A stretch of 64,000 bases of DNA. Origin: Candidatus Micrarchaeota archaeon. Lineage in GTDB: Archaea; Micrarchaeota; Micrarchaeia; Anstonellales; Anstonellaceae. The first letter of the stretch is position 1; each line of letters starts with the position of its first letter. The translations under genes were made by a program, and so were the position numbers. The stretch covers positions 25,439 to 89,438 of the forward strand of contig JAPLWX010000040.1 in NCBI GenBank assembly GCA_026396415.1, in the 5' to 3' direction. Shown piece after piece: positions 2,275 through 53,286 of this stretch. The notes beneath the pieces were generated by a model. The model searched no databases. It was not told the DNA's origin and saw nothing but the letters and a program-made list of their open reading frames with translations.

Positions 2275-2475
2275 CGGCAAGGGACAACGAATGCAGGGCA
2301 AGCCGCACAGCCAGCAAGGAAGGCGCTGGGCATGGCGCGAAGGGCAATGAATTCATGGCAAGCCGCGCAGGCGGCAAGGGGCGAGTGGGAACATGACGGA
2401 AAATGGCAAGGGCGGCATTCCCGCGGGCTTCCGCACTCCATCGCAAGGGGGAAGAAACATGACTGCAAGGGACGA
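2264..2475 (+). repeat. three diverged copies of the DP1-stop/DP2-start junction
   Basis: ggaacATGAcggcaagggac at 2266-2285, ggaacATGAcggaaaatggcaaggg at 2388-2412, gaaacATGActgcaagggac at 2454-2473. Confidence 0.7.
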
Positions 2476-5857: not shown

Positions 5858-5900
5858 TTGCCATTTAATAGTATTGGTTTCGAAATCCTGGTTGGTTCAT

Positions 5901-6428
5901 ATGCAGATAATCAAAATCCCCTCAGAGCGCGTGGGCGCGCTTCTTGGCGAGTCAGGCGAGACCAAGGACTACCTCGAGCGCAGGATGAAGGTGAGCATCA
6001 GCGCTGACTCGGACGGCGCAGTGGAGATAAACGGCGAGCCTCTTGACGAGTTCATTGGCAAGGACATCGTGAAGGCTATCGGCAGGGGGTTTGAGCCTGC
6101 AGTTGCGCTCCGCCTCCTTTCCGACGACTATGGCTTCAAGCTCATCGACCTTCGCGACTATGCTGGGAACGAGAACGCGCGCCACCGCATCATGGGGCGC
6201 GTGATAGGCGAGAAGGGGCGCACCAAGGAGATAATAAAGGAGGAAGTGGGCGCGGACGTGGTGTGCTACGGGCACACCGTGGGCGTGATTTGCGCAGTGG
6301 ACACGCTCAACTACGCGATGGAGGCGATCTTTCGGATAATCGAGGGCTCCAACCACGCATCCGTGTACGCCTATCTCGAGAAATGCAGGCGCAAGATAAA
6401 GGAGGAGGAAGTGCGGAAGCTGTTTTAG
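5901..6428 (+). CDS. KH-domain RNA-binding protein (archaeal Dim2/PNO1-like)
   Basis: Two KH-like modules with a GxxG loop (VIGEKGRTKEII). ATG at 5901 inside the longer TTG-initiated ORF starting at 5874. Confidence 0.75.
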   Translation: MQIIKIPSERVGALLGESGETKDYLERRMKVSISADSDGAVEINGEPLDEFIGKDIVKAIGRGFEPAVALRLLSDDYGFKLIDLRDYAGNENARHRIMGRVIGEKGRTKEIIKEEVGADVVCYGHTVGVICAVDTLNYAMEAIFRIIEGSNHASVYAYLEKCRRKIKEEEVRKLF

Positions 6429-6431
6429 CGG

Positions 6432-7625: not shown

Positions 7626-7628
7626 GGC

Positions 7629-9428: not shown

Positions 9429-9458
9429 GTCTTTCCCTTCATCTAGTGTTGCAATTAA

Positions 9459-9466
9459 TTTATAAA
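9459..9466. promoter_or_regulatory. TATA box (TTTATAAA) in the divergent intergenic region
   Basis: Palindromic tttataaa about 30 nt upstream of ATG 9428 (minus strand). Same octamer recurs upstream of other genes in the window. Confidence 0.45.
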
Positions 9467-9598
9467 CATGTGTATGGTTCGCGCCACCGCCGTGCGGATG
9501 GCAGCGCATTATTCGCCAAACCACAACCAATATTAAATACCGCCTCGAAGTTTAATCGACCAGTTCAGGAAAAAGCAATATGCTTACAAAGTGGTTAG

Positions 9599-36346: not shown

Positions 36347-36355
36347 ATTGATCCC

Positions 36356-38193: not shown

Positions 38194-39369
38194 TCAGACC
38201 GGGTTCACCGCGGTGATTCTCATTATCCTGCTGCCGGCAGCCTCAAAGTCCACGCTCACGTTCATGGCGGTGACGTTCTCCTTCGGCGCGCCCGCGCCCT
38301 CTATGAGAAGCTCAATCCCGTTGGCGGACCCGATGTACTGCTTTCCGCCATTCTCAAGCACGGATGGCAGCATTATCCTCGCAGTCCATGCCTCGCTGAT
38401 TTCCGCGCTCATGTTCTGCGCCCGAAGCTCACCGAGAAGCGCCTGCGCGCTTCCGTTGGCGGAATCATTCGCAAACGTGGCAACCGAATCAGGGAACACT
38501 GCGGCGTATCCCTTCTGGAGCAAGGCCAGCCCCAGCGTCTCGCTGTCCGTGAAGTTGTTATCCACGCTTACGATGCCGGGCTGCGTGCCGGTCACGTAGG
38601 ATTTGCCAGCAAGCGCGGCGTCAAGCGCCTCCTTGCTCGCGTTTGCGACGTAGGCAAAAGACCTCTCCTTGTAGGTGGCATTCGCCGCAAGCACAAGCGG
38701 CCTTGCAGCCGCCCTGTCCTTGAACGCCACCCCCAGCATGTAAGTGGCGGAAGGCTGCAAGGAAAGCCTCGCCTCGACCATCACGCCCCTGACTGCAAGC
38801 GGCATTATCGTCACCGAGCCCATGCCTGTCACCTGCCCATCGTCCACGCGCGCTGCAAACTGCGCCTCGTGCGTGGAGCCTTCGTCGTAAACCGGGCGTA
38901 TCTGCATGCTTATGCTCGTGCCTTGCGCATCCACAGATTTCCCGCTCGTGTCGCTGACCCTCACAATATCCGAAGTGGCCAGGTAGGCAGTGGCGGTCAC
39001 CGTGGCGTTCACATCCTCGAATTCCAATGCCGCCGAAGGCACGTCCTTCGAGCTTTTCAGGCTCACCACCAGATTGTCCCCGCTCCAGACCGCGTACGTC
39101 GCTACTCCGCTGGAAACAAGCATGTCCTTCACTTTCTCAATCCCGCTTGCGTTCCCGGAAACGACAAGATAGGGCTCATACCTCACAATGGTGATGTTCG
39201 CAACCGCGTTCCCGGTAAAGCTTACCGCGGATGAGTTGCCCCCGTCCCCCGCGCCAGCCGCGCTCCTGCTGCCTGCGGACTGGAGCATGCCTATGGCAAA
39301 CGGCTCGATGATGAAAAGCACCACTATCCCGACCGCGAATATTGCAATATACAGCGTTTTCTTGTCCAT
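38194..39369 (-). CDS. membrane-anchored extracytoplasmic hypothetical protein
   Basis: N-terminal TM helix (LYIAIFAVGIVVLFIIEPFAIGML) followed by a beta-rich Ala/Ser/Val sequence. Confidence 0.6.
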   Translation of the reverse strand: MDKKTLYIAIFAVGIVVLFIIEPFAIGMLQSAGSRSAAGAGDGGNSSAVSFTGNAVANITIVRYEPYLVVSGNASGIEKVKDMLVSSGVATYAVWSGDNLVVSLKSSKDVPSAALEFEDVNATVTATAYLATSDIVRVSDTSGKSVDAQGTSISMQIRPVYDEGSTHEAQFAARVDDGQVTGMGSVTIMPLAVRGVMVEARLSLQPSATYMLGVAFKDRAAARPLVLAANATYKERSFAYVANASKEALDAALAGKSYVTGTQPGIVSVDNNFTDSETLGLALLQKGYAAVFPDSVATFANDSANGSAQALLGELRAQNMSAEISEAWTARIMLPSVLENGGKQYIGSANGIELLIEGAGAPKENVTAMNVSVDFEAAGSRIMRITAVNPV

Positions 39370-40101: not shown

Positions 40102-40156
40102 GGCACGCTCACCGTGCGTGCCAAGCAAAAATAAAAAAATAAGAAAAAGAAAAAAG
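40102..40156. terminator. bidirectional terminator: hairpin plus long A/T tract
   Basis: ggcacgc-N7-gcgtgcc hairpin (40102-40122), then an A-rich run that reads as oligo-T on the minus strand, directly after the last cluster gene. Confidence 0.5.
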
Positions 40157-40516
40157 CTACTTCTTCTGCGGCACGGCTTTCTTGGCGCCAAGCTCCTCAT
40201 TTATTGCATCGAGCCTTGCCTGCTCTTTTATTGCCGAGATCTTTGTAGTGGCGCATGCCGCGACGTAGCTCCCGTAGACTTCCTGCAGGTCAATGAGAAT
40301 AGCCGTCCTCTCCCCTCTTTTTGTGGTGTCTGAGAGCTGCGCCTCCAGCTTATGGATGGCTTCCTTCATTTTGCTGCATGCAGGCGCAAGCATGTATTTG
40401 TCATTGGTCTTCCACAGGCTCATCCCCACCATGTACGTGTTGAACCATTCAGTCCTCTCGCCACCCTGCCCAGCTGGCGATGAGGGGTTTTTCTTTTCCT
40501 CGCTCATTGCTTGCAT
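40157..40516 (-). CDS. cluster protein B7, small helical hypothetical protein
   Basis: 119-aa ORF. An internal ATG at 40507 forms an ATGA overlap with the upstream stop. Confidence 0.55.
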   Translation of the reverse strand: MQAMSEEKKNPSSPAGQGGERTEWFNTYMVGMSLWKTNDKYMLAPACSKMKEAIHKLEAQLSDTTKRGERTAILIDLQEVYGSYVAACATTKISAIKEQARLDAINEELGAKKAVPQKK

Positions 40517-41541
40517 TGCATCCCCTCGATTATATCATGCACCCTGTCCTCTTTCCTTGCCTCAAAGAAGGATTTGGCGACCGCGGCCCCTGACTGGAGA
40601 ATTGCGTTCAGTGCAAGCGGAAGCCTGCCACGCGTGGCAAATCCCAGCACAAGCCCTGCAACCATGCCAATAATCGCCCCGTATCCGTGCGGGAGAAAGG
40701 GAACGGCAAAGTAGCCAGCGCCTGCGCACAAGGCTGCCAATTCAACATAGCCCGTCTCAACCTCTGCCCTGTTCTTGGAAGTGCAAAGCTCCGCGGTTCT
40801 TCCCAGCCTCCTTTGCAATTCCTTTCTGAATGCTTCGGCAAAGCCATTGGTTTCCACAAGGCATATCCTGATGGGCGCTGCAACCGAATTCGGCGCAGCC
40901 ATGCTCGTGCACTTGATGTCGCCTCGCCCGCAGTTGATTTGCCAGCTGTAATCCGTCCTGTCCCCGGTGCCCAGCATAGAGTTCTTTATCAACCGGGCAA
41001 CATAGCTTGACAGGGCATTGATATCTTGCCTGTTTTCAGGCATTTTCAGCTCTTTCCTATGGTAAACAAACTGCGCCAGCCCGTTTTCGATTGCTGCCCT
41101 GACCATGAGGGAGGCGATTTTCCTGTCGTACTCAGGCGCAAACAATATGGAATACCTGACTATCATGTCAAGGTCAAACAGGTCATACTTGCTGGAATTT
41201 CTTGCCACTGACCTAAAGAACTTTTTATTGCCCCCGTATCTGAAAGAGTCGAGGATCGTCGCCATTTCATCGTCAGAAATCCGCTCCATCCTCGCATTCT
41301 TGCCCGGCATTTCCTTCATCACCGGCTCGATTGGGCCGGACTGATGGCGCCACTTGGAGACCACAGACGCAGCATTCACTGGGGACTGACTTATGCCGCT
41401 TGCAATGGTTTTCTTTTCCTTCAGCATGTTTCCCAGCCCTTCAATCTTTTTTCGAGGCTTACTCGAACCACTTTCTGAGCCACTGCCACCTGCCTCCTGC
41501 CTTGCCTTCCTTGCCAACGCCTGGCTCAACAGCGACTTCAT
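40504..41541 (-). CDS. cluster protein B6, motif-bearing protein with C-terminal TM hairpin
   Basis: Shared N-terminal motif at residues 61-100 (VSKWRHQSGPIEPVMKEMPGKNARMERISDDEM). Hydrophobic C-terminal segment GYFAVPFLPHGYGAIIGMVAGLVLGF. An alternative start is ATG 41427. Confidence 0.6.
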   Translation of the reverse strand: MKSLLSQALARKARQEAGGSGSESGSSKPRKKIEGLGNMLKEKKTIASGISQSPVNAASVVSKWRHQSGPIEPVMKEMPGKNARMERISDDEMATILDSFRYGGNKKFFRSVARNSSKYDLFDLDMIVRYSILFAPEYDRKIASLMVRAAIENGLAQFVYHRKELKMPENRQDINALSSYVARLIKNSMLGTGDRTDYSWQINCGRGDIKCTSMAAPNSVAAPIRICLVETNGFAEAFRKELQRRLGRTAELCTSKNRAEVETGYVELAALCAGAGYFAVPFLPHGYGAIIGMVAGLVLGFATRGRLPLALNAILQSGAAVAKSFFEARKEDRVHDIIEGMQCKQ

Positions 41542-42823
41542 CAGGATTTATCTCGATATCCAGCGCATCATTTATGGCTGCGGGAGGCGGGATTTTCTCA
41601 TGTTTCACTTCCCACCCTGCCTCTGCTCCGAGTTGTTCCTGTTTTTCAGGGGGGATGAGCTTCAGCGCATCCTTTGCGGATTTCACATCGCGGCTGTTCC
41701 CTGACTTTGCGGCAGATGCGAATTCCACAAGCGCGATTTTCCAAAGCTCCTCCTTCTCCTGGCTTTCAGGCACTGACACGAGCGCGGCTATTGCCTCATC
41801 GATTGGCACTGCTGAAGACTCAAGCGCGGCTTTGGCAAAAGGTGGCATCCTCTCCGGGCGGACAAAAGGCAGCGCCTCCCTAGCCTTGAGAATCATTTTC
41901 TCCTCAGACCGGAGCATTTTGCAGAATGCGGAATGCATCCGGTTCCAAATGAAATTCATGCGGTTGCCGTCCTCCACCTCGCGCATGAGCTCCATCTCTT
42001 CCTTGCTGACCTTTTCCATAGGATTTTCCTTGAGCGCGTTCTGCAGGATGTTCAGCACGCCCTGCACCGTGTCGTTTCCTAACTCATTGGCAGCATGGAT
42101 GCAGGGAATCGCGAACTTCGGGCAGCCGATTTTTGCAATGTGATAAATGATTCCCGCAGGCGCGCCGTTGTTCAGAGAGGCACGCGCCATCTCATCCCAG
42201 CTTTCCTCATGCCTTTTTTTATGGCGGATTTCAAAGTCATTATTCTTTGCACTGGAATCCTTGAGCTTTTTCGAACTCTCGCCTATCCAATATCGAACCC
42301 GCTTCATGTTTTCAAGCAAGGCATCCAGCAATTCAGGCCTTGAAAGCGCATTTGCGCCCGTGAAAATATCTTCCGTATTTGAATAGCTCAGGCACCATCC
42401 TACCTGCAAATCAGCCTCGAGGGACGTTGCCGTACGGCGCGCAACTTCCATTAAGTCGGGGCGGACTGGGAGGTTGGGGGAAAGGACGCCAAGCAGCGTG
42501 CATTTCCACCCTGCGCCTTCAGCATATTTTTTGCTTCCCATGACAGCAACAGCCAGCTCCTCTATGTCCTTTGCGTTGATGTTGCCTCCTTCCCTGATGA
42601 CTTTGATGATGGCTTTCAGCCCGTCATCACTGCCGGCCTGCCTTACCAGCGCGTCAATCTCCCTTCTTGCGAGGCGCACAATCTCGATTTTCTGCACAGG
42701 CTCCTCCTTCTTTATGGGCTCCTGCCCGCCCCTCCGTCTCTTCCATGGGTTCCCGCTTCTTTGAATATCCTGCGGGCTGCCCACTGTGACATTCACAATC
42801 TCTTTCTTTTTTGGCTCAGGCAT
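41459..42823 (-). CDS. cluster protein B5, motif-bearing helical protein
   Basis: 454 aa. Shared motif at residues 24-63 (GNPWKRRRGGQEPIKKEEPVQKIEIVRLARREID). TGATG overlap with the rSAM gene. Confidence 0.6.
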   Translation of the reverse strand: MPEPKKKEIVNVTVGSPQDIQRSGNPWKRRRGGQEPIKKEEPVQKIEIVRLARREIDALVRQAGSDDGLKAIIKVIREGGNINAKDIEELAVAVMGSKKYAEGAGWKCTLLGVLSPNLPVRPDLMEVARRTATSLEADLQVGWCLSYSNTEDIFTGANALSRPELLDALLENMKRVRYWIGESSKKLKDSSAKNNDFEIRHKKRHEESWDEMARASLNNGAPAGIIYHIAKIGCPKFAIPCIHAANELGNDTVQGVLNILQNALKENPMEKVSKEEMELMREVEDGNRMNFIWNRMHSAFCKMLRSEEKMILKAREALPFVRPERMPPFAKAALESSAVPIDEAIAALVSVPESQEKEELWKIALVEFASAAKSGNSRDVKSAKDALKLIPPEKQEQLGAEAGWEVKHEKIPPPAAINDALDIEINPDEVAVEPGVGKEGKAGGRWQWLRKWFE

Positions 42824-43647
42824 CAGTTTCCCCTCATGTACTCGCAGGTGCGCGCATTCCCGCCCGCATCATAATGGATTGACGTGCCGTTCAATCCCGG
42901 GCATCCGCCCTGCTGCAGCGTTATCCCGTAGCTTGCAGAAAGAACCGGGCAGCCGGTGAATTTTCCCTTTGCCCCAAAAAAATCAGCCCCGTACGCGGCC
43001 GCATACACCAAAACCGAATCAATCTTGCCCGGAGCCAGCACAGTTGCATTTCCCCCGCCAACCGGGATATAGGGCGCTATGCCGAGCTTCAGCCCGAGCT
43101 TTTCGGAAAGCTCCACAATTCCCTTCAGCCCGCCCAGATTCTCAGCGCAAATTGTCGTGCGCAGCCAAAGCGATTCCCTGCCCAGCCTCTCCGCAAGGTG
43201 CTGCACATTGGCAAGCACGGCGTCCCATGCGTTGTTGCCTGTGAATTTTTCGTATCCAGCCGCGTCGGCAGATGGGATGTGCACCTGCAGCCTCCATTTC
43301 CCCCCATTCGCTGCAAGCGCCTGCACCACGTCCTCGCGCCACACAGTGGCGCTTGTGGAAATGTCAGCCATGATTCCCCTGGCAAAGCAGAGGTTGATCA
43401 TTTTCACTATATCCGGGTTGCACCAAGGCTCCCCCCCTTCCATTGCCGCGCTTTCAAGACTTGGATGGCTGCGAATTATCTTCTCGAATGCCGGAAAGCC
43501 AAGCATCCTCATGAGCGGCTTGGCATCGGTCCTCGAGCAGATGATGCACCTGTTGGGGCAAAAGTCGGTTATGTCCACTGTCGCCCTCCTGGCTTTGGAT
43601 GCGCCCGCTTCCGCAGCAGGAAAAGTGCACGCGCTTGTGCTGCCCAT
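42823..43647 (-). CDS. cluster protein B4, radical SAM enzyme (small, with C-terminal Cys triad)
   Basis: CX3CX2C motif in DFCPNRCIICS (43537-43560). GGEP SAM-binding motif. C-terminal GCPV..GGCPG..RTCEY. ATG 43647 overlaps the upstream stop (TGATG), and a GTG lies at 43650. Confidence 0.8.
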   Translation of the reverse strand: MGSTSACTFPAAEAGASKARRATVDITDFCPNRCIICSRTDAKPLMRMLGFPAFEKIIRSHPSLESAAMEGGEPWCNPDIVKMINLCFARGIMADISTSATVWREDVVQALAANGGKWRLQVHIPSADAAGYEKFTGNNAWDAVLANVQHLAERLGRESLWLRTTICAENLGGLKGIVELSEKLGLKLGIAPYIPVGGGNATVLAPGKIDSVLVYAAAYGADFFGAKGKFTGCPVLSASYGITLQQGGCPGLNGTSIHYDAGGNARTCEYMRGN

Positions 43648-45227
43648 CACTTTCCACCCCAGTCAGGCTCGCTCTCGTTCGCGCAGAAAACAGTCTCCCC
43701 TTGTTCCACCGTGGTGGTTGCGAAGTGCACGTAGTGCGCCTTCTTCTCCTCAGCCACCTTCATGCCGAATTCCATGGTCCTGTCCTTGTCCCCGTGGAGC
43801 TCGGCAATCCCCTTGGCAATCTCGACTATATCGCGCTCGCTTGTCTGGCTCTTGCCCATCTCAGCGCTTGTGGGAAGGAAAAGCCCGAATGTCACGGCAT
43901 AGCTTCCGTCCTTGCCCTCTATCACCACGTTTATGCGCTCTGTGAAGCCAAGCGACACGCAGTCGAACCTGCAGTAAGCCCCGTCCACGCCTGTCAGGCT
44001 GCCAGCCTCCTCGAGGTTCCTCTGCCTGAAGGCAAACTGGTCAAGCGCGCTTGGGAAAACAAGCTCGTGCCTGTTGCCGGTGGGCATGCGCACCGCCATG
44101 TTCTCATACAGGGGTATGCTCTCTCTCACAACTGTTGGATCTCCACGTAGAAAATGCCCTGGATTTAGCGCGTCGGGCATAGCGGGCTTCTCCGGCCCTA
44201 GGCGTATAATTTCACCCGCCGTCCCGATTACCTTTCTGCTCTCAACTCCCCCCAGCCTTGCGCCGAATTCCTTTGCAAGCTTGGTGTAATCGCACACTCC
44301 TGGCAGCTCGAACTCCACGAAGAAATAGCCGAGCTTGGCTGCCGCTGCAAGAAGGCTTTTCACCTCCCTGATGCCCTTGGCCGGTCCCCCTTCTTCGTCA
44401 GCCCTGGCGGGTTCCCTGTCGTCGTCAGGGTACCACCACTCGGAGTCTACCTTGAGCGTAATCCTGTCCGTGCTTGGCACAATCACGAGGTTGGCGTTTC
44501 CGGTTTCCCCGCGCAGCAGGTCGCCGGTTACTTCCTCATACCTTGCTTCATAGCCGTTCTCCCATTTGCTCACGCAGCAAGCGGACCATTCCCCTCCATC
44601 CTTTGCTATGTGCAGGGTGATGGTTTCCCCCGCAGCCATCTTTTTCACCCTTTCAACAGCAGCCTTGTCCAATTTTGGCTCGAATTCCTTCAGCTTCCTG
44701 ATGAACCCGTCAGCGCCCGCCTCGGGCGGAAACAGCGTCGGCTCAGGCAGGTAAAGCCCGCCATAGGCAGGCTGCAGGAAGGAGTCGTTCATCCTCTCCT
44801 GCTGCTCTGTCTCGAACCTGACTTTTAGTCCCTGGAAAATATGGAAAACGTCCTGCTGCCCTGAAAAGCCGCCGTGCAGCTGGTGCATGGCAATGAGGCG
44901 CAGCACAGTGAGCAGCTCCTTGCCGTCGTCCCTCCCTAGCCACATGTCGGTCTGAGATGTATCAAATCCCCGAAGCGCAGGCTCGTCCACAAGCGGGCCT
45001 GAAAGCGCTTTTCCCAGCCTTTCAATGAGCGGGCGCGAGACCGCGGGCATTTCCACAGCCTCGCCAAGCGAGGCGGTCTCGGCTGCAAACAGCCTGTACC
45101 TTTTCGACTCGCCGTTACCTATCCTGCAATCGGAAAGGCTCTGCTTGCGGACGCCGCGCATGCGCCCCACCACGCCGGCAAGCTCGCCCCTCAGCTGGTT
45201 CGTGGTCCAAGTGGATGAATATGCCAT
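43647..45227 (-). CDS. cluster protein B3, 526-aa ORFan
   Basis: Long ORF, 1 nt after the upstream stop. Mixed alpha/beta composition. No motif recognised. Confidence 0.6.
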   Translation of the reverse strand: MAYSSTWTTNQLRGELAGVVGRMRGVRKQSLSDCRIGNGESKRYRLFAAETASLGEAVEMPAVSRPLIERLGKALSGPLVDEPALRGFDTSQTDMWLGRDDGKELLTVLRLIAMHQLHGGFSGQQDVFHIFQGLKVRFETEQQERMNDSFLQPAYGGLYLPEPTLFPPEAGADGFIRKLKEFEPKLDKAAVERVKKMAAGETITLHIAKDGGEWSACCVSKWENGYEARYEEVTGDLLRGETGNANLVIVPSTDRITLKVDSEWWYPDDDREPARADEEGGPAKGIREVKSLLAAAAKLGYFFVEFELPGVCDYTKLAKEFGARLGGVESRKVIGTAGEIIRLGPEKPAMPDALNPGHFLRGDPTVVRESIPLYENMAVRMPTGNRHELVFPSALDQFAFRQRNLEEAGSLTGVDGAYCRFDCVSLGFTERINVVIEGKDGSYAVTFGLFLPTSAEMGKSQTSERDIVEIAKGIAELHGDKDRTMEFGMKVAEEKKAHYVHFATTTVEQGETVFCANESEPDWGGK

Positions 45228-45228
45228 T

Positions 45229-46290
45229 TCACCAACCTGCCTTCGAATCCGGGTTCAGCTTGGGTATCACGGGCAGCCTGTCCAGCGGGTTCTCCACGTA
45301 GCTGAGATTGATGCGCTGCACCACCGCGTTCCTCTCGTCAAGGTCAAGCGGGCCCTTCCTCTTCTTCTCTATCTCGCCAAACACGTTGTCAAGCGACTTT
45401 TCCACGTCAGGCATGCGCCTTAGCCTCTCCTCGCGAATCTCCTGCGAGGTATCCACGCTCGTTCCCATAGGCACCGAAACATCCTTCGGCTCCTTGTGGC
45501 TTCCCATATCGCACATCATACTTTTCGTCTCCAGCCTCACAGTGGGCTTGAGTATGGTCTTGGTCACATTGCGGTTCATGAAGTCTTCGCCCTCGTCAGG
45601 TTTCTCCTTCCCAAGTTCTTTCTGCACAATCTCGCTGGCTTGCCTGAAGGCATCAGCAGTGTCTTTGTTTGCTAAAAGCACCCGCCCACCACCAATGTCA
45701 TGCATAAGCATGTCATCTGGCAAACCAGAGTCGCCCTCCTCGGCTATAATGCTGTTCGTTGTCTCATTCACCGTGATGGTCGTGTCGTCGAGGTTCAGCT
45801 CCACTATCTCGCAAAGCTGCTTGCCCGTCATTTTCGATGCCGTTATCCTCATCAGCCTCCTGACCTCAGGGTCGTCGAGGAAAAGATCCTTGGAATGCCC
45901 TTTGTCCGTGGCTACTATGCAGGCATGCACCTCGTACGAGCGGTGGATGAGCGCGGAAAGTATGCTGGCAGGCACGTCCAGCCCCTCCCCGAGGTTCACG
46001 GTCTCAAGCCCTGTCGCAATCTCCTTGTTGAAGAATTCTGTGAGCGCCTTCATCACCTGCAGCGCGTCCATTCCCTGCTCTCCCGGGTTGTGGATTGCGG
46101 CAACGAGGAATTTCGGCACCAGGAGGGTTTTTGTCTCAAGGGTGCCGTCGCCCCTCCTGTAGGTGCACGTCCACTCCCTCATGTTCGGGTCAAGCAGCCT
46201 CTCCTGCAGGGCAGGCATTTGCCTCTGCGCCACCTGCGGGACTTTTTGGTTGCCCAACGCGTTTGCCTGGTTGAATGCCATCAAATCCAC
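45229..46290 (-). CDS. cluster protein B2, 353-aa ORFan
   Basis: Starts at GTG 46290 or at ATG 46281 (preceded by GGTGGA), 4-13 nt after the ATPase stop. No motif recognised. Confidence 0.6.
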   Translation of the reverse strand: MDLMAFNQANALGNQKVPQVAQRQMPALQERLLDPNMREWTCTYRRGDGTLETKTLLVPKFLVAAIHNPGEQGMDALQVMKALTEFFNKEIATGLETVNLGEGLDVPASILSALIHRSYEVHACIVATDKGHSKDLFLDDPEVRRLMRITASKMTGKQLCEIVELNLDDTTITVNETTNSIIAEEGDSGLPDDMLMHDIGGGRVLLANKDTADAFRQASEIVQKELGKEKPDEGEDFMNRNVTKTILKPTVRLETKSMMCDMGSHKEPKDVSVPMGTSVDTSQEIREERLRRMPDVEKSLDNVFGEIEKKRKGPLDLDERNAVVQRINLSYVENPLDRLPVIPKLNPDSKAGW

Positions 46291-46294
46291 CGTT

Positions 46295-47857
46295 CTATCC
46301 TTTTTTCTTGTATTCCCGAATCACTTTGTACGATTCAAGGTCGTCGCCGACGCGATTTCTGATGTCGTCCCATGCGTAAGTGTCTGCCGGAGGCTTCTTT
46401 TTCATGAGCGTGTCCTTGAGCAATTCGGTCGTGACGGGCATCCCTTCATCCACAATGTCCCTAATTGCATCCTCTATCATGCGGGGGTTCACGCTCTTCT
46501 CATTCACGTACTTCATCAGCTCACTCAGGTCGACCTCGTGCCCCTTGGGCAGCTTGCTTGCGATTATGAGCTTCATGTCCTCCGGGCCGGCTTTCCCTAT
46601 GAACGCCTTCTTGAACCGGTTCAGGATTGCAGGGTCCCATCTCGATGGGTCGTTTGCGCACAATACGAACATCACGCCCGGGATCCTCTCCGAAGTCTCG
46701 GCCTTGAGCACTGACAGCCACTCGCTGCTGTACGGGCTGTCGGGGTTCAGCACACCATCCGCTTCGTCAAGTGAGAGGATGCACTTTGCCGCGTTCCTCG
46801 CGCTCTGGATGACGTTCCGCACCGCCTTTCCAGATTCGCCCTGCCACATGCTTATCAGGTGCGATGTGTTGACATTGATCAGGTTGAAGCCGAACTCGTG
46901 CGCCACTGCCTCCAGAAGCTTGCTCTTGCCATAGCTTGACGGGCCGTAAAGCACCAGCAGCGATCCTGCGTCAATCCTTGCAGCACGCCCGCAGAGCAGT
47001 TCCTTTGCAGGCTGGATGTATTCGCCCACCAAGGACTCAAGCTCGGTCCTCGGCTCTATGAAAGGCATGTCGCGGATTGCGGATGCGCGCAGCCACGACT
47101 TTGCCCTGTCAACATCGACTTTCTCCACTTTCGAAGATTTCCGCATGTCTGCCATGAAGGTGGCGGTCTGGATTATGCCGAACAGGTCGCCCGGCACATA
47201 GCCGTATGTTATTTCGGCTGCATACTTGCGCGTGTTCTCGTTCCATTCGAATTTCTTTATTTCCGCGCCCTCCACTATGGCGTTTATCATCTCGTACCTT
47301 TCAGCCTTTGTGGGCGGGATGAATTCGATGTTTATCGTGATTCTTGGCGGGCTGTTCAGCGCCTCGTCAAGCATGCCTTCCTCGTTTGTCGTGAAACAGG
47401 GGAAAAGCCCAAGGTTTTCCTTGCTCTGCGTTTGCCCGAGCAGCGATGCCAGAATTGCCCGGTTGGACTGGTTGACAGAGCCCTCGCTTCTCTTGCCCAG
47501 GTATTCTATGTCGTCAAAAAAAGGCATTGCAGTCGTGCCGCCATGTTCCTTCACATACTTGCGGGCGTCGGTCATCACCTGGACAATTGCCTCTGGGGAC
47601 TCCAGCACAGGCATTTCCCACAAAAGCGAGCCTGTTTCCTGCGCAATATACCTTACGAATTCAGTCTTGCCTGTCCTGGGCAGGCCCTTGCATAGCGTGC
47701 CGAATGTGCCGAGCTTGCCGTAGTTGCCATAATGGGTTATGGCGCTTTTTAGAAAATCAGCCTTCTCCTGAAGCCTCGGAGGGAGGAATATCCTGACTCC
47801 GGATATTTTTTTCGGCTCGATTTTGACGCTTCCGGAGCTCATGCCCGTATTCAACAT
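46295..47857 (-). CDS. cluster protein B1, double-domain classical AAA+ ATPase (Cdc48-like, no N-domain)
   Basis: D1 has GLPRTGKT and FFDDIE. D2 has GPSSYGKS, ILSLDEAD and the SRH-like NDPSRWDPAILNRF. GGGGGA Shine-Dalgarno-like (SD-like) element 5 nt upstream of ATG 47857. Confidence 0.85.
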   Translation of the reverse strand: MLNTGMSSGSVKIEPKKISGVRIFLPPRLQEKADFLKSAITHYGNYGKLGTFGTLCKGLPRTGKTEFVRYIAQETGSLLWEMPVLESPEAIVQVMTDARKYVKEHGGTTAMPFFDDIEYLGKRSEGSVNQSNRAILASLLGQTQSKENLGLFPCFTTNEEGMLDEALNSPPRITINIEFIPPTKAERYEMINAIVEGAEIKKFEWNENTRKYAAEITYGYVPGDLFGIIQTATFMADMRKSSKVEKVDVDRAKSWLRASAIRDMPFIEPRTELESLVGEYIQPAKELLCGRAARIDAGSLLVLYGPSSYGKSKLLEAVAHEFGFNLINVNTSHLISMWQGESGKAVRNVIQSARNAAKCILSLDEADGVLNPDSPYSSEWLSVLKAETSERIPGVMFVLCANDPSRWDPAILNRFKKAFIGKAGPEDMKLIIASKLPKGHEVDLSELMKYVNEKSVNPRMIEDAIRDIVDEGMPVTTELLKDTLMKKKPPADTYAWDDIRNRVGDDLESYKVIREYKKKG

Positions 47858-47907
47858 AATATCCCCCTATAGTGTCATTTCTAATAACATCCATTGCCCT
47901 CTTTTTA

Positions 47908-47961
47908 TGTGTGTCGAAAGATATATAAATAGATATCCAATTTTATACTCTTAAACACACA
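47908..47961 (-). promoter_or_regulatory. promoter P-B: TGTGTGT-N40-ACACACA inverted repeat centred on the TATA box
   Basis: tgtgtgtcgaaagatatataaatagatat... is 27/29 identical to 53222-53250. TATA box at about 47921-47930. Confidence 0.6.
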
Positions 47962-47999
47962 TTAAAACAAGCCCAATCCGCACTTTGCGCAATTGCATT

Positions 48000-49340
48000 T
48001 CAATCATGGAATACGTCTAAGCCGATGGGCACAAGAAGATGGAAGCCGGCCTTCCGCCTCACATGCTTGAACCCGCTGTTTTGCCTTGCATATCTCAGGC
48101 ATTCTTCCCGCATGCCTTTCGGAAGCCCCTTGGAAAGCCAAAGCGCTTTTTGCTGTATGCTCTCGAATTCGCTCTTCAGCGCAACAAGCGCAATCTCCGC
48201 CTTCATGCAGTCAGGCAATTTCTCCGCGTACTCAACCGCATATCTCTGCATGTATTCAATCGGGCTTGCTGCAGCTGCCTTGAGGCATTCCTTCTTCATT
48301 TCATCAGGCATCGCATTTGCAAGCTTGAAAACATCGAACTGGCTCTTCTCTTTTTCTCCCCCCAGGACGGAAATCGCCTTTTCATAGGCAGACTGCAGGA
48401 ATTCCGCATCAAGCGGGCTTGGGAAATTTTTCGAGTATTCCAGCCATTCCGGCGAATGCTGGTTTTCCAGCCACTTGATTGCAACCGGATAAGCTCTTTT
48501 CCTGAATTCATCGCGCATGGCTGCGGGTAGCGCCTCGCCGAATTTCGTGGAGCCTATGGAGTGCCAGTCCTTGTCACCTTCAAGCCTCTCGATGGCAATC
48601 GCAAACGCCCTTTTCCCGCACTCCTCCCTCATTTTTTCAGGAAGGCTTTCTGAAAGCTTGAGCGCGGCAATTTGCACTGTCTCAAACACGCTTTCCATTC
48701 CCTTGAGAGCCACTGTTTTTTTCATCTCATCAGGAAGGGATGCCGCTGCCTCTAAAGCAGGGCGCTGCACATACTCCTCCTGCCGAAGTTCGCCGTCTTC
48801 ATACGACCATGCCAGCCCCTTGAGGCAGCATTCCAGCCTCATCTCGTTCGGCAGCCCCTTGGAAAGCTCAAGCGCCTTAAGCTTCGCCTCATAATGTACA
48901 TTTTCCATTCCCCTGAGGTAGCATTCCTTTTTCATTTCGTCAGGCAGCAGCCTCGCCGCTGCATCAAGCGCCCCGCTCCACACAATCTGTTCGAATGATG
49001 CCGCTGCAAAACGCAGGATGCAAAGCATATCATCCTCATGGAGCGAACCCAAAAATCCGCTTATTCTATGCCATGACGCCCGGACCAATGTCCATTCCTC
49101 CAACGTGTTGCATTGCCTTCCCGAAGGGTCCAGCGACCAGATTAACCAATCCATTTCTTTTTTGGACAATCTCTGTTTTTCGACAATTGGCTGCGGAAAC
49201 GCTTTCATTACTGGCGCCGTGCGCACCTTGAACCGCAGCCAGCGGGAGTATAGCTTCACTGCAAGCGAGTCTGGATTATGCTCTTTTTTGATTTCAAGAG
49301 CCAACTCGAATTTATTCAGTTTCCTCATTTCCGGACACAT
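48000..49340 (-). CDS. cluster protein A3, motif-bearing repeat protein (nine LPxEM[KR]xEC-type repeats)
   Basis: Shared motif at residues 31-70. About 9 helical repeats with variable spacing (roughly 30-55 aa): LPDEMKKEC, LPNEMRLEC, LPDEMKKTV, LPEKMREEC, LPAAMRDEF, FPSPLDAEF, MPDEMKKEC, LPDCMKAEI, LPKGMREEC. Confidence 0.65.
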   Translation of the reverse strand: MCPEMRKLNKFELALEIKKEHNPDSLAVKLYSRWLRFKVRTAPVMKAFPQPIVEKQRLSKKEMDWLIWSLDPSGRQCNTLEEWTLVRASWHRISGFLGSLHEDDMLCILRFAAASFEQIVWSGALDAAARLLPDEMKKECYLRGMENVHYEAKLKALELSKGLPNEMRLECCLKGLAWSYEDGELRQEEYVQRPALEAAASLPDEMKKTVALKGMESVFETVQIAALKLSESLPEKMREECGKRAFAIAIERLEGDKDWHSIGSTKFGEALPAAMRDEFRKRAYPVAIKWLENQHSPEWLEYSKNFPSPLDAEFLQSAYEKAISVLGGEKEKSQFDVFKLANAMPDEMKKECLKAAAASPIEYMQRYAVEYAEKLPDCMKAEIALVALKSEFESIQQKALWLSKGLPKGMREECLRYARQNSGFKHVRRKAGFHLLVPIGLDVFHD

Positions 49341-49344
49341 TTCC

Positions 49345-51633
49345 TCAATCCACCCTGTTCCTTATCCTGCCGTAAAATCCGACATCGGACAGGCTCTTTT
49401 CAAGCACGCCCGGCATGAGATCGTCCATGAGCTTTTTCATTGATTCGTGGTCCCTGCCTTGCGAGTACACGTAGCCTGAGAACTCAATCTGCGTTTTGCG
49501 CGGCAGGAATGAAAGCGCCCTTGCAACCCTTTCACCCTTGAACCACATGCCTTCCCTGACCTGTTCCCAGAGTATTTCCTCTGCTTTTTCATAAAGCGGC
49601 GGCCGGTATTCCTCAGGCAAGGCAGGTATTGCCCCGAACAGGTTCATCTCAAGCGTGCGGGTTATTGTCTTTCCCTCAGGCGTCTTTTGCGGTTCAAACT
49701 TCCTGGCTATTCTCGCTGCAGCAAGCCCGTACAGCCCTGCCTGCCTCTTAGGAGGCTGGAATGCGATGAGCCTCACGAAAATCTCGCCAAGGCTGGTGAA
49801 ATCAAAATCGGGTTGCCTGATGAACTCCTCAAGCGCATCGCACGCAGGCGCCCCCAGCCTCTTCCTTTCCTTTTCCTTCAGGTAAGGGGCAAGAAGCACT
49901 GCTTTCTGCCTGTCAACAGTGGTATGTATTGCCTTCTGGATTTCCCTATCCTCATCGTTCAGCTCCTTTTTCACATCAAGAAGGCTTTGCCACAGCCACG
50001 GCGCGTCGCACCAGTCTCCTTCAAATGACGGCAGCAGCTCGTCGGCAGTGTAATCGCAAAGCTCGCCATTTCTCCCTTTTTCGCAGGCAGCCATTGCGTC
50101 ATAGGCGTGCCTGAACACAAACCCGTGCTTGCTCCTCAGTGCAACTGGCACCACGCGCTTGAGCCCTTCAAAATCAAGCTCCTTCACAAGCGGGGCGAAA
50201 GCCCTGAGCCGTTTATCGCTTGCCTTTGCCTTTTCTTCATCATCAGGCCCTGCAAATTCGTCAAGCAGCACCCTTGATTGCTGCTTTGGCGTGAGGGTGA
50301 GGAAGGCTGCTTCAAGGTCGATTTCATCCAGCTTCAGGCATTCCATTCCCTTGTTCCAAAGCCTGAACCTCAGCTTCGGCTCCACAAGCGCAAGCTGCGA
50401 GAACGCGGCTTTCCCGGCAGCGCCTCCCTTTTCCAGCCCAAGCGTTATCGCCCACCATCTTTTCTTCTCCTCGTCAACATTGTCCAGAAGCTCTAAAACA
50501 GCTGCCATTGCCTTTTCGCCCAGTACCTTGCTTTGGAGCAGCTCCTCCACAGCCTTGCCTATTTCTTCCTTTGATTCAAGGCGCAGCAGCCGCACTCCTT
50601 CAAGCGCTGTCACTTCCCACCTGTTCATGATGGATTTCTTTATCAGCTCCATCTTCGTTTTCTTCGTGAAATCCGGCAAAAGCCCCAGCACCTCAACAGC
50701 TGCGGCAGGCTTGCCTCCGGTCTCCAGCACATGCTCCACAGCCTTGCGCATCAGGCGCTTTGATTTCGCCTTCAGGCTCATTCCTTCCATTCCCTTTACG
50801 CCCTTTGTTTCGCCTGTCAGTATCGCCAGGCCTATTTTCGTCACTTCCATCTCGCCATTCCTTATTGCCTCGATCATGGGCGCATTCCGGAGCCTGGGCG
50901 GAAGCTTCACAATGCGCTTTGCAAGCCTCACTCCGGAAACCAACACGAATCCGTCTTTCAGGACGTACCTAATTATGTCTGAGATGGACTTGTCCGACTG
51001 GTGCTCCAGCAGCCCGATGCCAATCGAGGCGACCTGCTCGTTTCCGCTTGCAAGCGCTTTCTTTATGGGCCTTTCCTGCTGCTTGACTGGAAGGGAGGAT
51101 ATCAGATAAGCGACGCGCAGCTCTATTCCTGAATTGGAAAGCCCTGCTTCGACCGCGATTGCAGCAGACTCCGGCTCGTACTTGTGGATGTCCCGCTCAA
51201 GCACGCTGCATGCATCAATTGAAAAGACAGGCATTTTCAAAAGCTTTGTGACCATTGCGCAGGATTCCCTGGGGTCTTCCACCTGTTTCAGCCATTTTAT
51301 TATGTATCCGTTGAGTTCCTCCTGTCCTGCATTTCGCCTTGAAAGGAGCGCGGTTGCTATCCTGGCAGCATCATGAGGGTGAAGCATGTGGAGGTTCTCC
51401 GCCCACCAGTCAACTTTGATGCCCTCTGCATCGGCAATCTTTTCAATCGCGGTGCAAACATTTTGCAAATCCTTTTCAGGCATCCGCTCAGGGCGGATCT
51501 CGTCCCCCGGCAGCTTTTTCACTATGGGCGCGGTGCGGACAATCATTTTCTGCCAGTAGGTGATGGGCCTGCCGTGCTGCCTGTTTGCTGGCAAGTCCGC
51601 GCTTTTTTTCTCCCCTCTCTCCTTTTGTATCAA
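49345..51633 (-). CDS. cluster protein A2, motif-bearing 762-aa helical-repeat protein
   Basis: Shared motif at residues 24-63 (ITYWQKMIVRTAPIVKKLPGDEIRPERMPEKDL). TTG start overlaps the upstream stop (TTGA). Many LPxx[LY]R-type helices. Confidence 0.6.
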   Translation of the reverse strand: MIQKERGEKKSADLPANRQHGRPITYWQKMIVRTAPIVKKLPGDEIRPERMPEKDLQNVCTAIEKIADAEGIKVDWWAENLHMLHPHDAARIATALLSRRNAGQEELNGYIIKWLKQVEDPRESCAMVTKLLKMPVFSIDACSVLERDIHKYEPESAAIAVEAGLSNSGIELRVAYLISSLPVKQQERPIKKALASGNEQVASIGIGLLEHQSDKSISDIIRYVLKDGFVLVSGVRLAKRIVKLPPRLRNAPMIEAIRNGEMEVTKIGLAILTGETKGVKGMEGMSLKAKSKRLMRKAVEHVLETGGKPAAAVEVLGLLPDFTKKTKMELIKKSIMNRWEVTALEGVRLLRLESKEEIGKAVEELLQSKVLGEKAMAAVLELLDNVDEEKKRWWAITLGLEKGGAAGKAAFSQLALVEPKLRFRLWNKGMECLKLDEIDLEAAFLTLTPKQQSRVLLDEFAGPDDEEKAKASDKRLRAFAPLVKELDFEGLKRVVPVALRSKHGFVFRHAYDAMAACEKGRNGELCDYTADELLPSFEGDWCDAPWLWQSLLDVKKELNDEDREIQKAIHTTVDRQKAVLLAPYLKEKERKRLGAPACDALEEFIRQPDFDFTSLGEIFVRLIAFQPPKRQAGLYGLAAARIARKFEPQKTPEGKTITRTLEMNLFGAIPALPEEYRPPLYEKAEEILWEQVREGMWFKGERVARALSFLPRKTQIEFSGYVYSQGRDHESMKKLMDDLMPGVLEKSLSDVGFYGRIRNRVD

Positions 51634-51860
51634 AAATCACACCTTGGGTCAGGCGGCTTGCCGTCGAAAATACCCGGCAGCCATTTTTCAATCCCGGCTT
51701 TCATATGCCCCTTCTTGTCCTTTATTTCGGTTACTGCGAGCGAGGCGAGAGGGTGGCGGTACTTGATTGGCAGCGCAGCTATCATGCGCGCTATTGCCTC
51801 AGCCGGGCTTTTTGGAGGCTTCAGATTCTTCAGCCAGCCCTGGCGCAATGACGTCCTCAA
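51630..51860 (-). CDS. possible small protein (76 aa) coupled to A2
   Basis: ORF whose TGA overlaps the only available start (TTG 51633) of the 762-aa gene. Its own start is uncertain (TTG 51860 or ATG 51785). Confidence 0.3.
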   Translation of the reverse strand: MRTSLRQGWLKNLKPPKSPAEAIARMIAALPIKYRHPLASLAVTEIKDKKGHMKAGIEKWLPGIFDGKPPDPRCDF

Positions 51861-51928
51861 TGCCCCAAATCCCTCTTATTGCCAGGCAATTGCGCACTTT
51901 TCATCCGCATTCCTCCTATGGTGCTCTC

Positions 51929-53188
51929 TTACTCTTCAGCTGGGCTAAGCTCCTCAGTCATCTGCTTGGCAAAATGCCGTGTATCGTGGTACAACGTGTC
52001 CTTCTCCACCTCAATGTAAAGCTCCAGCCTCAAATCTTTCGGCAGCATGCCTGCCGTTTTCTGCGCGGATTCGCGGATTTGCTGGTCTTCATAGTTATTC
52101 AAGATGCTGGCAATCTGCGCCTTGGCTATCCTGCAAATGATTCCAATTTCGTGCGAGTCGCCCCCAAATGCCTGCTCAAGACGGGTCAGCATTACACTGA
52201 GTGCTGTCCCATCATTTTTGTCAATGATCCTGTGGTAAATATCCGGGCGGTTCTTGCTTGGGAGCCTTCCAAGGATTTCAATGGTTTTTGCAAGGCAGCC
52301 CAAGTCTATTCCAATATGCTGCTTGATGCGCAGTGTGGCTTCGCGGTAGACAGTGTCGCGGAATTTTTCAGGAATCTTCTCAACCATGTCAATGCATGCC
52401 ATAATGGAATCTACGTTATACGCTTCACGGATGAAGTTCACAATCCTGTTCGCAACGGCTTCATAAACAGCATCCTTGCTTGCTTCGCCAAGCTTCCAAA
52501 CCGGTGTCAGGATGGCTTCCAATTCAGGCATATTGCAGGATTTAGCCTCTTTTCCAAGCAGGCTCGCCAGCCTGCCATCAAGTTCTGTGCTTGCGCCGTC
52601 CAGTGCAAGATCTATCAATGCCCCTGCCAGCTGGTTTTTCTCATCGTCGGTCTGGGCGTTTTTCAGCACCTCGCTCCGCGTTGCCCCGCCAACATTGATC
52701 TTCAGAATCCGGAGGGCATGCATGCAGAGGTCAGCCCTTTCTCCCTCATTTTTACGCTCAAATGAGGCTGCCAGCGCCAATATGTTCCATTTCATATGGA
52801 TATTTCCAAACTCCAATGGCGCAAGCTCATCCGCATCCTCGAAGCACAGCTGGTTGATTGTTTTCATGGTGTTGATGAACAAAAGCGAGGTCTTTTCATC
52901 AGTTCCACTGCCGCGGTTGTTTTCCAATATTTTTTTCAGGGCGTCCATTCCTTCCTTGCCAAGCCTTTTCACTTCAACGCGTTCAACAGGCAAGTCTTTC
53001 ATGATGGGCGTGATTGCCGGGTTTTTGCTTTGCCAGCCCGGCGGTATTATTTCTTCCTGAGGCTGCCCGCCTTTTCCTGTCGCGTCTCCCTCCCCTTTCT
53101 TCTTCCGTCCGAGCAACCTCATCAAACCACCATGATGCATCTGAGTAGGTTCGCACCTGCGCCAGCAGGCGCTGGTGCTACGTGTCAT
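51929..53188 (-). CDS. cluster protein A1, motif-bearing helical-repeat protein
   Basis: 419 aa. Shared motif at residues 49-88 (PPGWQSKNPAITPIMKDLPVERVEVKRLGKEGMD). ATG 53188 is about 20 nt downstream of the predicted TSS of P-A. Alternative ATGs at 53140 and 53122. Confidence 0.6.
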   Translation of the reverse strand: MTRSTSACWRRCEPTQMHHGGLMRLLGRKKKGEGDATGKGGQPQEEIIPPGWQSKNPAITPIMKDLPVERVEVKRLGKEGMDALKKILENNRGSGTDEKTSLLFINTMKTINQLCFEDADELAPLEFGNIHMKWNILALAASFERKNEGERADLCMHALRILKINVGGATRSEVLKNAQTDDEKNQLAGALIDLALDGASTELDGRLASLLGKEAKSCNMPELEAILTPVWKLGEASKDAVYEAVANRIVNFIREAYNVDSIMACIDMVEKIPEKFRDTVYREATLRIKQHIGIDLGCLAKTIEILGRLPSKNRPDIYHRIIDKNDGTALSVMLTRLEQAFGGDSHEIGIICRIAKAQIASILNNYEDQQIRESAQKTAGMLPKDLRLELYIEVEKDTLYHDTRHFAKQMTEELSPAEE

Positions 53189-53221
53189 GCCATTCGCGAT
53201 AACACTATCCCAATTTTGTGT

Positions 53222-53275
53222 TGTGTGTCGAAAGGTATATAAAGAGATATTTATTTTGACACTTTAATACACACA
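53222..53275 (-). promoter_or_regulatory. promoter P-A: TGTGTGT-N40-ACACACA inverted repeat centred on the TATA box
   Basis: tgtgtgtcgaaaggtatataaagagatat... is a paralogue of 47908-47961, with identical 40-nt spacing between the half-sites. Confidence 0.6.
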
Positions 53276-53286
53276 GAAAAAAGCAG

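Follow-up and report, generated by a model that had tools for sequence, protein, structure and literature searches.

A constant four-gene core and exchangeable proteins sharing an N-terminal tag form a gene system in Micrarchaeota

A 64-kb stretch of DNA from Candidatus Micrarchaeota archaeon (contig JAPLWX010000040.1; hereafter the window) carries a gene cluster in which a double AAA+ ATPase and a small radical S-adenosylmethionine (SAM) enzyme lie among proteins of no recognised family. What kind of system do these genes form, and what connects their products? Comparison with related loci shows that the cluster is a real Micrarchaeota gene system. A constant core of four genes, encoding the ATPase (B1), two further proteins (B2 and B3) and the radical SAM enzyme (B4), is combined with exchangeable proteins that carry one and the same N-terminal tag, which we refer to as clients. 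In this small genome the cluster takes up around 13 kb; in a relative it reaches around 18 kb. An original prediction, made from the sequence alone, had divided eleven minus-strand open reading frames (ORFs) into two units, A and B, and all eleven are present in the window:

51929..53188, minus strand: A1, tagged client of 419 aa (397 aa from the gene caller's start); no Pfam family; match of 49 bits to the tag profile at its N-terminus
51630..51860, minus strand: small ORF of 76 aa, read from the sequence (a 51-aa version is called in contig L001); no tag
49345..51633, minus strand: A2, tagged client of 762 aa; the sole conserved accessory protein
48000..49340, minus strand: A3, tagged client of 446 aa with eight HEAT-like LPxEMK repeats of about 35 aa
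46295..47857, minus strand: B1, core type II AAA+ ATPase of 520 aa; Pfam AAA twice
45229..46290, minus strand: B2, core protein of 353 aa, fold unassigned; eight-sequence alignment
43647..45227, minus strand: B3, core protein of 526 aa; 18-sequence alignment and structural model
42823..43650, minus strand: B4, core radical SAM enzyme of 275 aa; PF04055 at 40.3 bits
41459..42823, minus strand: B5, tagged client of 454 aa; found by tag pattern and tag profile
40504..41541, minus strand: B6, tagged client of 345 aa (307 aa from a later start) with a C-terminal glycine-zipper hairpin, GAIIGMVAGLVLG
40157..40516, minus strand: B7, untagged helical protein of 119 aa, lineage-specific, with no BLAST match across loci

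The 76-aa frame, listed as a possible gene in the original prediction, is doubtful and probably not a gene. Nothing corresponds to it in the closest relative, in which the 414-aa and 729-aa genes on either side are set 54 nt apart.

A search for synteny found the core together with tagged neighbours in eight independent loci. The four core genes are present in each, in the order ATPase-B2-B3-radical SAM in seven of them. The loci read were the window and the following:

L003: closest relative carrying the cluster, from a 'Candidatus Micrarchaeota archaeon' genome
L011: low-G+C (0.38) lineage; clients run beyond the end of the locus
L013: FKBP flank kept
L014: order variant at 6171-10360, where a tagged 408-aa gene and the radical SAM gene lie between B2 and B3 (P0014)
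L015/L016: two overlapping loci, counted once; tag Trp replaced
L017: one client, of 1,389 aa
L018: two clients, of 1,511 and 1,175 aa, on a 191-kb contig

A ninth, partial locus (L012) holds ATPase and B2 only. The number of tagged proteins beside each core ranges from 1 to 11 or more, and the gene content around the core changes completely from locus to locus. For the ATPase, only four clusters of orthologues reach E ≤ 1e-30 among 5.8 billion proteins (38-72% identity). The named members of the B3 family are all annotated as Micrarchaeota, Micrarchaeia or Bilamarchaeaceae. Scans of genomes and metagenomes with the B2 alignment returned only a relative of the L003 type; these scans are pattern-based and uninformative on prevalence.

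The element that connects the variable proteins to one another is the tag. The original prediction had seen a common N-terminal motif in five products, and of the window's 538 ORFs precisely these five (A1, A2, A3, B5 and B6) match the gapless pattern W-x8-P-[IV]-x-K-x2-P; 200 shuffles gave 0 matches. The tag cores are located as follows:

nt 52988-53035, minus strand: tag core of A1, aa 52-67 (regular expression)
nt 51508-51555, minus strand: tag core of A2, aa 27-42 (regular expression and profile)
nt 49194-49241, minus strand: tag core of A3, aa 34-49 (regular expression and profile)
nt 42698-42745, minus strand: tag core of B5, aa 27-42 (regular expression and profile)
nt 41305-41352, minus strand: tag core of B6, aa 64-79 (regular expression and profile)

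Across the loci the tag occupies 45-70 residues at the start of nearly every variable protein, with the consensus [VIL]-[AGS]-G-[RK]-x3-4-W-x2-[LF]-x3-6-P-x2-K-x1-2-P-x5-9-[ERK]-R-[LM]-[PS]-x3-[LM]. Its steadiest positions are a small residue followed by Gly, the Trp, the P-x-x-K-x-x-P segment with a near-universal Lys, and E/K-R-L/M-P/S followed by a helix. In the L015 lineage I/F-P-x-S-L-L stands in place of the Trp. A hidden Markov model (HMM) of the tag was trained on the window, L003 and L011, which contain 5, 11 and at least 4 tagged proteins at its threshold, and was tested on the loci fetched afterwards. There it recovered 6 of 6 variable proteins in L013, 4 in L014, several (at least 3) in L015/L016, where the motif is visible by reading in most of the other variable proteins, and all of those in L017 (1 of 1) and L018 (2 of 2). 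In the nine loci scanned every match was N-terminal and lay in a cluster gene, and the flanking ORFs gave 0 matches.

Behind this constant start the clients differ greatly, with sizes from 74 to 1,511 aa. Between the window and L003 the core proteins are 50-72% identical and A2 shares 37% identity over 737 aa with a 729-aa protein, whereas the remaining clients are alike only over their first 60-100 residues. A C-terminal fragment matching A2 also lies directly upstream of the ATPase gene in L013, and B5 is 38% identical over 393 aa to an L013 protein placed likewise after the radical SAM gene. Many clients are connected between loci by repeat-level BLAST similarity, as with A3 and a tagged 525-aa protein of L015. 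In Pfam scans of 49 variable proteins the sole matches were to HEAT_2/HEAT, significant in 3 of the 49; A3 of the window has no Pfam match. The LP-type repeats that the original prediction attributed to all three unit-A clients are strong only in the 446-aa protein A3 (8 copies), and the repeat HMM gave no match in the 419-aa and 762-aa proteins. B6 has a hydrophobic segment at residues 282-300, and tagged proteins with a transmembrane hairpin like that of B6 occur in L003 (280, 313, 260 and 259 aa) and L011 (484 aa). Judged by their sequences, the variable bodies appear to be either HEAT-like solenoids or glycine-rich (glycine-zipper) membrane hairpins. Hydrophobic N-termini of the Sec or Tat kind were not seen in the tagged proteins.

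The ATPase B1 matches PF00004 (AAA) in two stretches (E = 2.7e-32), and its nearest solved structures are VAT, AFG2, Rix7 and p97 (E = 1e-27 to 1e-21). The first ring (D1) has the Walker A sequence GLPRTGKT (residues 58-65) and the Walker B sequence FFDD but no aromatic pore loop, whereas the second (D2) combines Walker A GPSSYGKS and Walker B LDEAD with a classical aromatic pore loop, MWQGES. Only about 45 residues stand ahead of D1, with PDB alignments to D1 beginning at residue 43, so there is no N domain; CDC48_N and CDC48_2, the double-psi barrel plus beta-clam domain, were not matched in Pfam. Against the NCBIfam CDC48 model TIGR01243, B1 scores 87.4 bits, far below the cut-off of 802.65. 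Proteasome-activating archaeal AAA ATPases end in a C-terminal HbYX pattern (PMC3493965), which is absent from four orthologues of B1, ending in KKG, KVG, PGA and KQG. The description 'Cdc48-like' in the original prediction thus holds for the two AAA rings only, because both the N domain and the HbYX tail are absent.

B4 belongs to the radical SAM superfamily as predicted, scoring 40.3 bits against PF04055 with a gathering cut-off of 29.5. The enzyme is about 270 aa long across the loci. It carries CPNRCIIC and GGEP; the cluster-binding C31-x3-C35-x2-C38 and G72-G73-x-P75 are invariant in eight orthologues. Three C-terminal cysteines (C234, C250 and C269, spaced C-x15-C-x18-C in the window copy) are invariant as well, which suggests an auxiliary cluster. 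Among NCBIfam families the nearest are MftC, the tungsten-cofactor oxidoreductase maturase, MoaA, AhbD and PqqE, all with scores far under the cut-offs (37.8 against 265 for MftC), and the sole PDB match is the PqqE structure 6c8v (E = 1.9e-6). In these sequence features the enzyme resembles peptide- or protein-maturases of the PqqE/MftC type.

The other two core proteins are soluble and acidic, and neither has a match in Pfam, PHROGs, PADLOC, NCBIfam or PDB sequences, with every family member scanned against Pfam and PDB. By this measure B2 and B3 appear to be families new in sequence, and by hhalign (probability 0.2) they are unrelated to each other. B2 follows the ATPase gene in every locus read and is about 277 aa long in most lineages. 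In the eight-sequence alignment its invariant residues include E71, S112, Y119, H122, R240, C260 and S264, around the segments PGE, PASILS and C-x-x-G-S-H. In L018 the B2 gene (9143-9953) is split into two ORFs of 172 and 82 aa in an otherwise complete locus; a frameshift, decay to a pseudogene or faulty assembly could account for this.

Word-indexed searches for B3, whether with a single sequence or an 18-sequence profile, found one homologue each; the family emerged only from an exhaustive profile search of representatives, which gave 17 representative clusters in 1.84 billion proteins. Outside the window its members are 383-430 aa long. A model computed with AlphaFold2 from the 18-sequence alignment has a predicted local distance difference test score (pLDDT) of 77.6 and a predicted template modelling score (pTM) of 0.74, and shows a helical N-domain, an alpha/beta middle and a C-domain of topology beta-beta-beta-alpha-alpha-beta-beta. 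The N-domain bears an invariant face (D126/H129/Q132/K135), and the C-domain is the least conserved part. Foldseek comparison of the model with PDB and BFVD found nothing at E ≤ 1e-3; the top matches (E = 0.06-0.2) are the T-fold enzymes GTP cyclohydrolase I, QueF-like and dihydroneopterin aldolase, and the C-domain resembles the T-fold order beta-beta-alpha-alpha-beta-beta, although this fold match is not significant. As far as it could be tested on the model, B3 would also be new in fold. An earlier model from a 2-sequence alignment (pLDDT 39.5) was discarded. The window copy of B3 contains two large insertions (residues 168-236 and 325-373) found in none of the 17 other members, both with pLDDT below 50.

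More broadly, Pfam, PADLOC, PHROGs and NCBIfam assign no family to the cluster products other than the ATPase and the radical SAM enzyme, as the original prediction had supposed, and profile and fold comparisons gave no confident match that would place the unassigned proteins in a known complex or in a virus or plasmid module. A scan of three loci predicted no transmembrane segment in any ATPase, B2 or radical SAM protein; of the three B3 copies two likewise have none, and that of L011 has one borderline segment.

The two units of the window are also connected by their promoters. A 29-nt element, ATATCTnTTTATATAyCTTTCGACACACA, occurs exactly twice in the 64 kb (0 copies expected by chance), once ahead of each unit, in agreement with the two promoters that had been predicted. 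These and the end of unit B are located as follows:

53222..53250, minus strand: promoter element copy 1, TATA box TTTATATA then CTTTCGACACACA, upstream of unit A
47908..47936, minus strand: promoter element copy 2, upstream of unit B and followed by a 5' leader of about 50 nt
40102..40156, minus strand: end of unit B, T-runs and then a GGCACGC...GCGTGCC hairpin, in the spacer common to the convergent FKBP gene

A related element stands ahead of three units in L003, with its core kept, and ahead of one in L011. The duplicated element and its retention in L003 fit the proposal of two co-regulated units. Of the findings named beforehand as able to overturn the original prediction, none turned up. 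The unit-B leader (window 47858-47907; L003 7440-7497) reads GTTATTAGnAATGAnAnTATAGGGGGA in both genomes, next to proteins that are 72% identical, and may hold a ribosome-binding site and a regulatory element. The A1-A2 spacer (51634-51928, 295 nt) has no copy of the promoter element, whereas its L003 equivalent of 54 nt has a promoter-like element, TTTTTATTCCTTTCGCCACAGG.

Within the units the gene junctions are as tight as had been described: TGA-N1-ATG at B2/B3, TGATG at both B3/B4 and B4/B5, 4-nt gaps at A2/A3 and B1/B2, a TTGA overlap between the small ORF and A2, and ATGA at B6/B7 on the gene caller's start. The hairpin and oligo-T run proposed as the end of unit B are both present, but the T-runs precede the hairpin and a generic terminator scan did not flag the site.

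How might the core and the tagged proteins work together? The original prediction suggested that an ATPase of the unfoldase type and an enzyme that modifies proteins may work on the tagged proteins or join them in an assembly. The strict co-occurrence of tag and core makes this inference much stronger. In the form that we favour the tag would be an address label that brings clients to the core, where the ATPase would thread or remodel them and the radical SAM enzyme would probably modify them. This proposal, reached by analysis of sequences and by analogy, we regard as evenly balanced between right and wrong. It starts from direct observations, namely the anatomy of the cluster, its conservation, the co-occurrence of tag and core and the shared promoters, and each biochemical step of it is conditional. 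B2 and/or B3 would stand in for the missing N domain as receptors of the tag. The ATPase would then grip the exposed N-terminal tag and thread or remodel the client through the D2 pore, and the radical SAM enzyme would place a modification in or beside the tag, with the near-universal Lys of P-x-x-K-x-x-P as the leading candidate for the site. The logic would be that of leader-guided maturases of ribosomally synthesised and post-translationally modified peptides (RiPPs), here applied to full-length proteins, and the outcome would be solenoid and hairpin proteins that are assembled into a set or associated with the membrane.

Consistent with this proposal, the ATPase is of the threading type, with VAT, AFG2, Rix7 and p97 as nearest structures and MWQGES in D2. 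There are precedents for its layout: short shared terminal motifs recruit protein families to one AAA+ protein in ESCRT-III MIM/Vps4, in the SHP/VIM motifs of p97 cofactors and in ssrA/ClpX, and leader peptides occur with radical SAM maturases. Two other interpretations of the tag fared less well. A glycyl-radical site, suggested by the likeness of 'TVAG' in L003 tags to RVxG[FWY], was dismissed, since two of the window's tags do not have the Gly. A Trp-Lys cross-link, modelled on streptide and darobactin, was downgraded because of the replaced Trp in the L015 lineage.

Several points weigh against the address-label proposal. Clients of 1,175-1,511 aa (L017 and L018) are awkward for complete unfolding. 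The Walker B motif of D2 varies between orthologues, being LDEAD in the window, FEEAD in the L003 type and IDQAE in the L011 and L012 types, where Gln naturally takes the place of Glu at the catalytic position; in D1, DD (three orthologues) or ND (one) stands instead of DE. Such atypical and varying motifs mean that ATP hydrolysis may be unusual. The radical SAM enzyme does not have the full SPASM (seven-Cys) motif, profile scans found no RRE/PqqD-like domain in any core or variable protein of the cluster, and the substrate of the enzyme could instead be a small molecule or RNA. The replacement of Trp in the L015 lineage also means that this residue is not a universal modification site.

Ranked by weight, the rival explanations are adaptor function, export, defence or conflict, a small-molecule pathway and a mobile element. 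In the weightiest of them, which we think rather unlikely, the tagged HEAT-like proteins would be interchangeable adaptors that dock through the tag on the ATPase or on B2/B3 and deliver other proteins (the cell's own, a host's or a virus's) for unfolding, much as p97 cofactors share SHP/VIM/UBX docking motifs. HEAT-type solenoids are typical protein-binding scaffolds and are the one kind of domain that Pfam finds among the 49 variable proteins; they diverge fast and expand as paralogues, as recognition modules would. Adaptor function would also suit an ATPase without an N domain of its own for substrate choice, and the very large clients of the minimal loci L017 and L018. It leaves the conserved radical SAM enzyme without a role, however, and proteins consisting only of a tag and a membrane hairpin unexplained, and no target proteins are identifiable. 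If the tag were instead an export signal, the ATPase would unfold solenoids and pore-forming hairpins for translocation to the surface or into a host archaeon, and this we consider unlikely. The DPANN archaea, to which the Micrarchaeota belong, include host-dependent episymbionts, and all named family members are Micrarchaeota. A constant N-terminal motif before hypervariable repeat bodies is the typical layout of an effector repertoire, a subset of clients has glycine-zipper hairpins, and the ATPase is of the unfoldase type. In its fullest form, a shade less probable again, the cluster would be a symbiont effector-delivery machine and the first dedicated DPANN export system, with a signal possibly licensed by radical SAM modification and with solenoid effectors and glycine-zipper pore-formers fed out. 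Export loses weight because the core includes no membrane protein and because in L017, the one minimal locus scanned, the client has no predicted transmembrane segment and there is no other cluster protein capable of forming a channel (the scan left out the L018 proteins, including its giant clients). Moreover, giant solenoids are poor translocation substrates, radical SAM enzymes have no known precedent in secretion systems and Sec- or Tat-like N-termini are missing from the tagged proteins.

We consider it quite improbable that the cluster is an anti-virus or conflict system, in which variable solenoids would sense and the ATPase and radical SAM enzyme act as effectors. The rapid turnover and varying copy number of the variable parts would suit such a role, a probable toxin-antitoxin pair adjoins the L011 copy, and there is weak generic similarity of the ATPase to IetA and of the radical SAM enzyme to pVip (E = 0.012). 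Yet PADLOC recognised no system, the similarity to IetA and others being generic to AAA and radical SAM proteins; 7 of the 10 proteins scanned had no match, and an eighth was marginal (PDC-M61A, E = 0.002). Pfam scans of core and variable proteins found no nuclease, protease or other effector domain, and the flanks, with FKBP kept in three lineages and purH/NMNAT in two, are not those of a variable island. A pathway to a cofactor or modified nucleoside, with the radical SAM enzyme and the T-fold-like C-domain of B3 making a small molecule and the tagged proteins as passengers, is very improbable. The best Foldseek matches of the B3 model are T-fold enzymes and B4 is also like MoaA and AhbD, but those fold matches fall short of significance, the invariant residues of B3 lie in the helical N-domain rather than in the poorly conserved C-domain, and neither the strict linkage of tag and core nor the AAA+ unfoldase is explained. 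An integrated virus, plasmid or other mobile element is hardly credible. Most genes are without a recognisable family, the G+C content is slightly under that of the flanks, and the cluster occupies a different genomic position in L011, L014, L017 and L018. Against this, PHROGs gave only generic AAA and radical SAM matches, with no integrase, capsid, terminase or replication genes, and no relatives were found in 2.9 million viral contigs, in keeping with the absence of integrase, capsid and terminase hallmarks noted in the original prediction. No tRNA gene in the window marks an insertion site (flanking repeats were not searched for). The lack of hallmarks and of viral relatives and the conserved housekeeping flanks in three loci leave this last explanation poorly supported.

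Setting the cluster beside known systems brings out both what is familiar in it and what is not. With Cdc48/VAT, p97, AFG2 and Rix7/NVL, B1 shares two tandem classical-clade AAA domains and the aromatic D2 pore loop. It differs in having neither the N-terminal double-psi/beta-clam domain nor HbYX, and in a D1 without aromatic pore loop and with Walker B DD/ND, besides the D2 variants DE, EE and DQ. B4 shares the CxxxCxxC and GGE core with PqqE, MftC and the SPASM/twitch maturases and has extra C-terminal cysteines that are invariant, and a conserved, putative recognition sequence before a variable body mirrors the leader/core logic of leader-guided maturases. In contrast to these, the cluster has three C-terminal cysteines, no RRE/PqqD, no gene for a short precursor peptide, putative substrates that are proteins of 74 to 1,511 aa, and an AAA+ unfoldase. 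The recruitment of ESCRT-III through its MIM to Vps4/CdvC, and of SHP/VIM/UBX proteins to p97, is similar in logic only: a paralogous family, one short terminal motif and a dedicated AAA+ protein. The tag, by comparison, sits at the N-terminus, is longer (45-70 aa) and shows no sequence relationship to those motifs; the ATPase lacks both MIT and N domains, and B2, B3 and a radical SAM enzyme come in addition. A fixed N-terminal motif ahead of hypervariable helical repeats is likewise found in Plasmodium PEXEL/PTEX-HSP101, where the AAA+ unfoldase HSP101 is part of PTEX, and in oomycete RxLR-dEER proteins with WY-repeat bodies, and the archaeon, too, belongs to a group that is largely symbiotic. 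The cluster differs from both in having no signal peptide, no core membrane channel and no sequence similarity.

No description of, or match to, such a system was found in full-text literature and databases. No counterpart is known for the combination, for the tag or for the two new core families, and we therefore rate the cluster as a new kind of system built from familiar types of part (AAA+, radical SAM, HEAT-like). DPANN archaea, including the Micrarchaeota, have very small genomes and their interaction with hosts is poorly understood. The tag offers a direct experimental handle on a constant machine and its exchangeable set of proteins. If the radical SAM enzyme does modify the tag, leader-guided radical chemistry would extend from small peptides to full-length proteins and be coupled to an AAA+ unfoldase; if clients are exported, the cluster would represent a new kind of archaeal protein delivery.

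The setting is chromosomal, as originally proposed. The flanks contain purH, an NMNAT-type cytidylyltransferase, an FKBP26-type isomerase and carAB; the FKBP gene abuts the cluster in the window, L003 and L013, and purH and NMNAT lie on the other side in the window and L003. The composition was thought to match that of the flanks, and it is indeed close, although the G+C of the cluster (0.52-0.57) is slightly lower than theirs (0.56-0.58). The whole window contains no tRNA genes and no Rfam matches. It is 100% identical to contigs L001 and L002, which come from two sequencing runs, so strain variation is not readable from this comparison.

Some neighbouring genes were noted in passing. In L018 a canonical Cdc48 gene of 904 aa (4243-6957) lies upstream of the cluster in divergent orientation. 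In L011 a ribbon-helix-helix protein with a faint CcdA match and a PIN-like protein are encoded as a pair at 5183-5784, around 1 kb upstream of the first cluster genes, and are probably a toxin-antitoxin module. Two kilobases from the cluster in the window (34853-38014, minus strand) lie genes for a TPR-AAA ATPase (552 aa; five TPR repeats and one AAA) and then a PrsW-family intramembrane protease (497 aa). A 568-aa TPR-AAA gene without PrsW is found in L011 at 1650-3356, around 3.4 kb from the cluster; at both sites the gene is set apart from the cluster, and the two sites have no neighbours in common. Between the FKBP and TPR-AAA genes of the window (38194-39369, minus strand) lies a gene for a 391-aa protein of no Pfam family with an N-terminal hydrophobic segment, possibly a surface protein.

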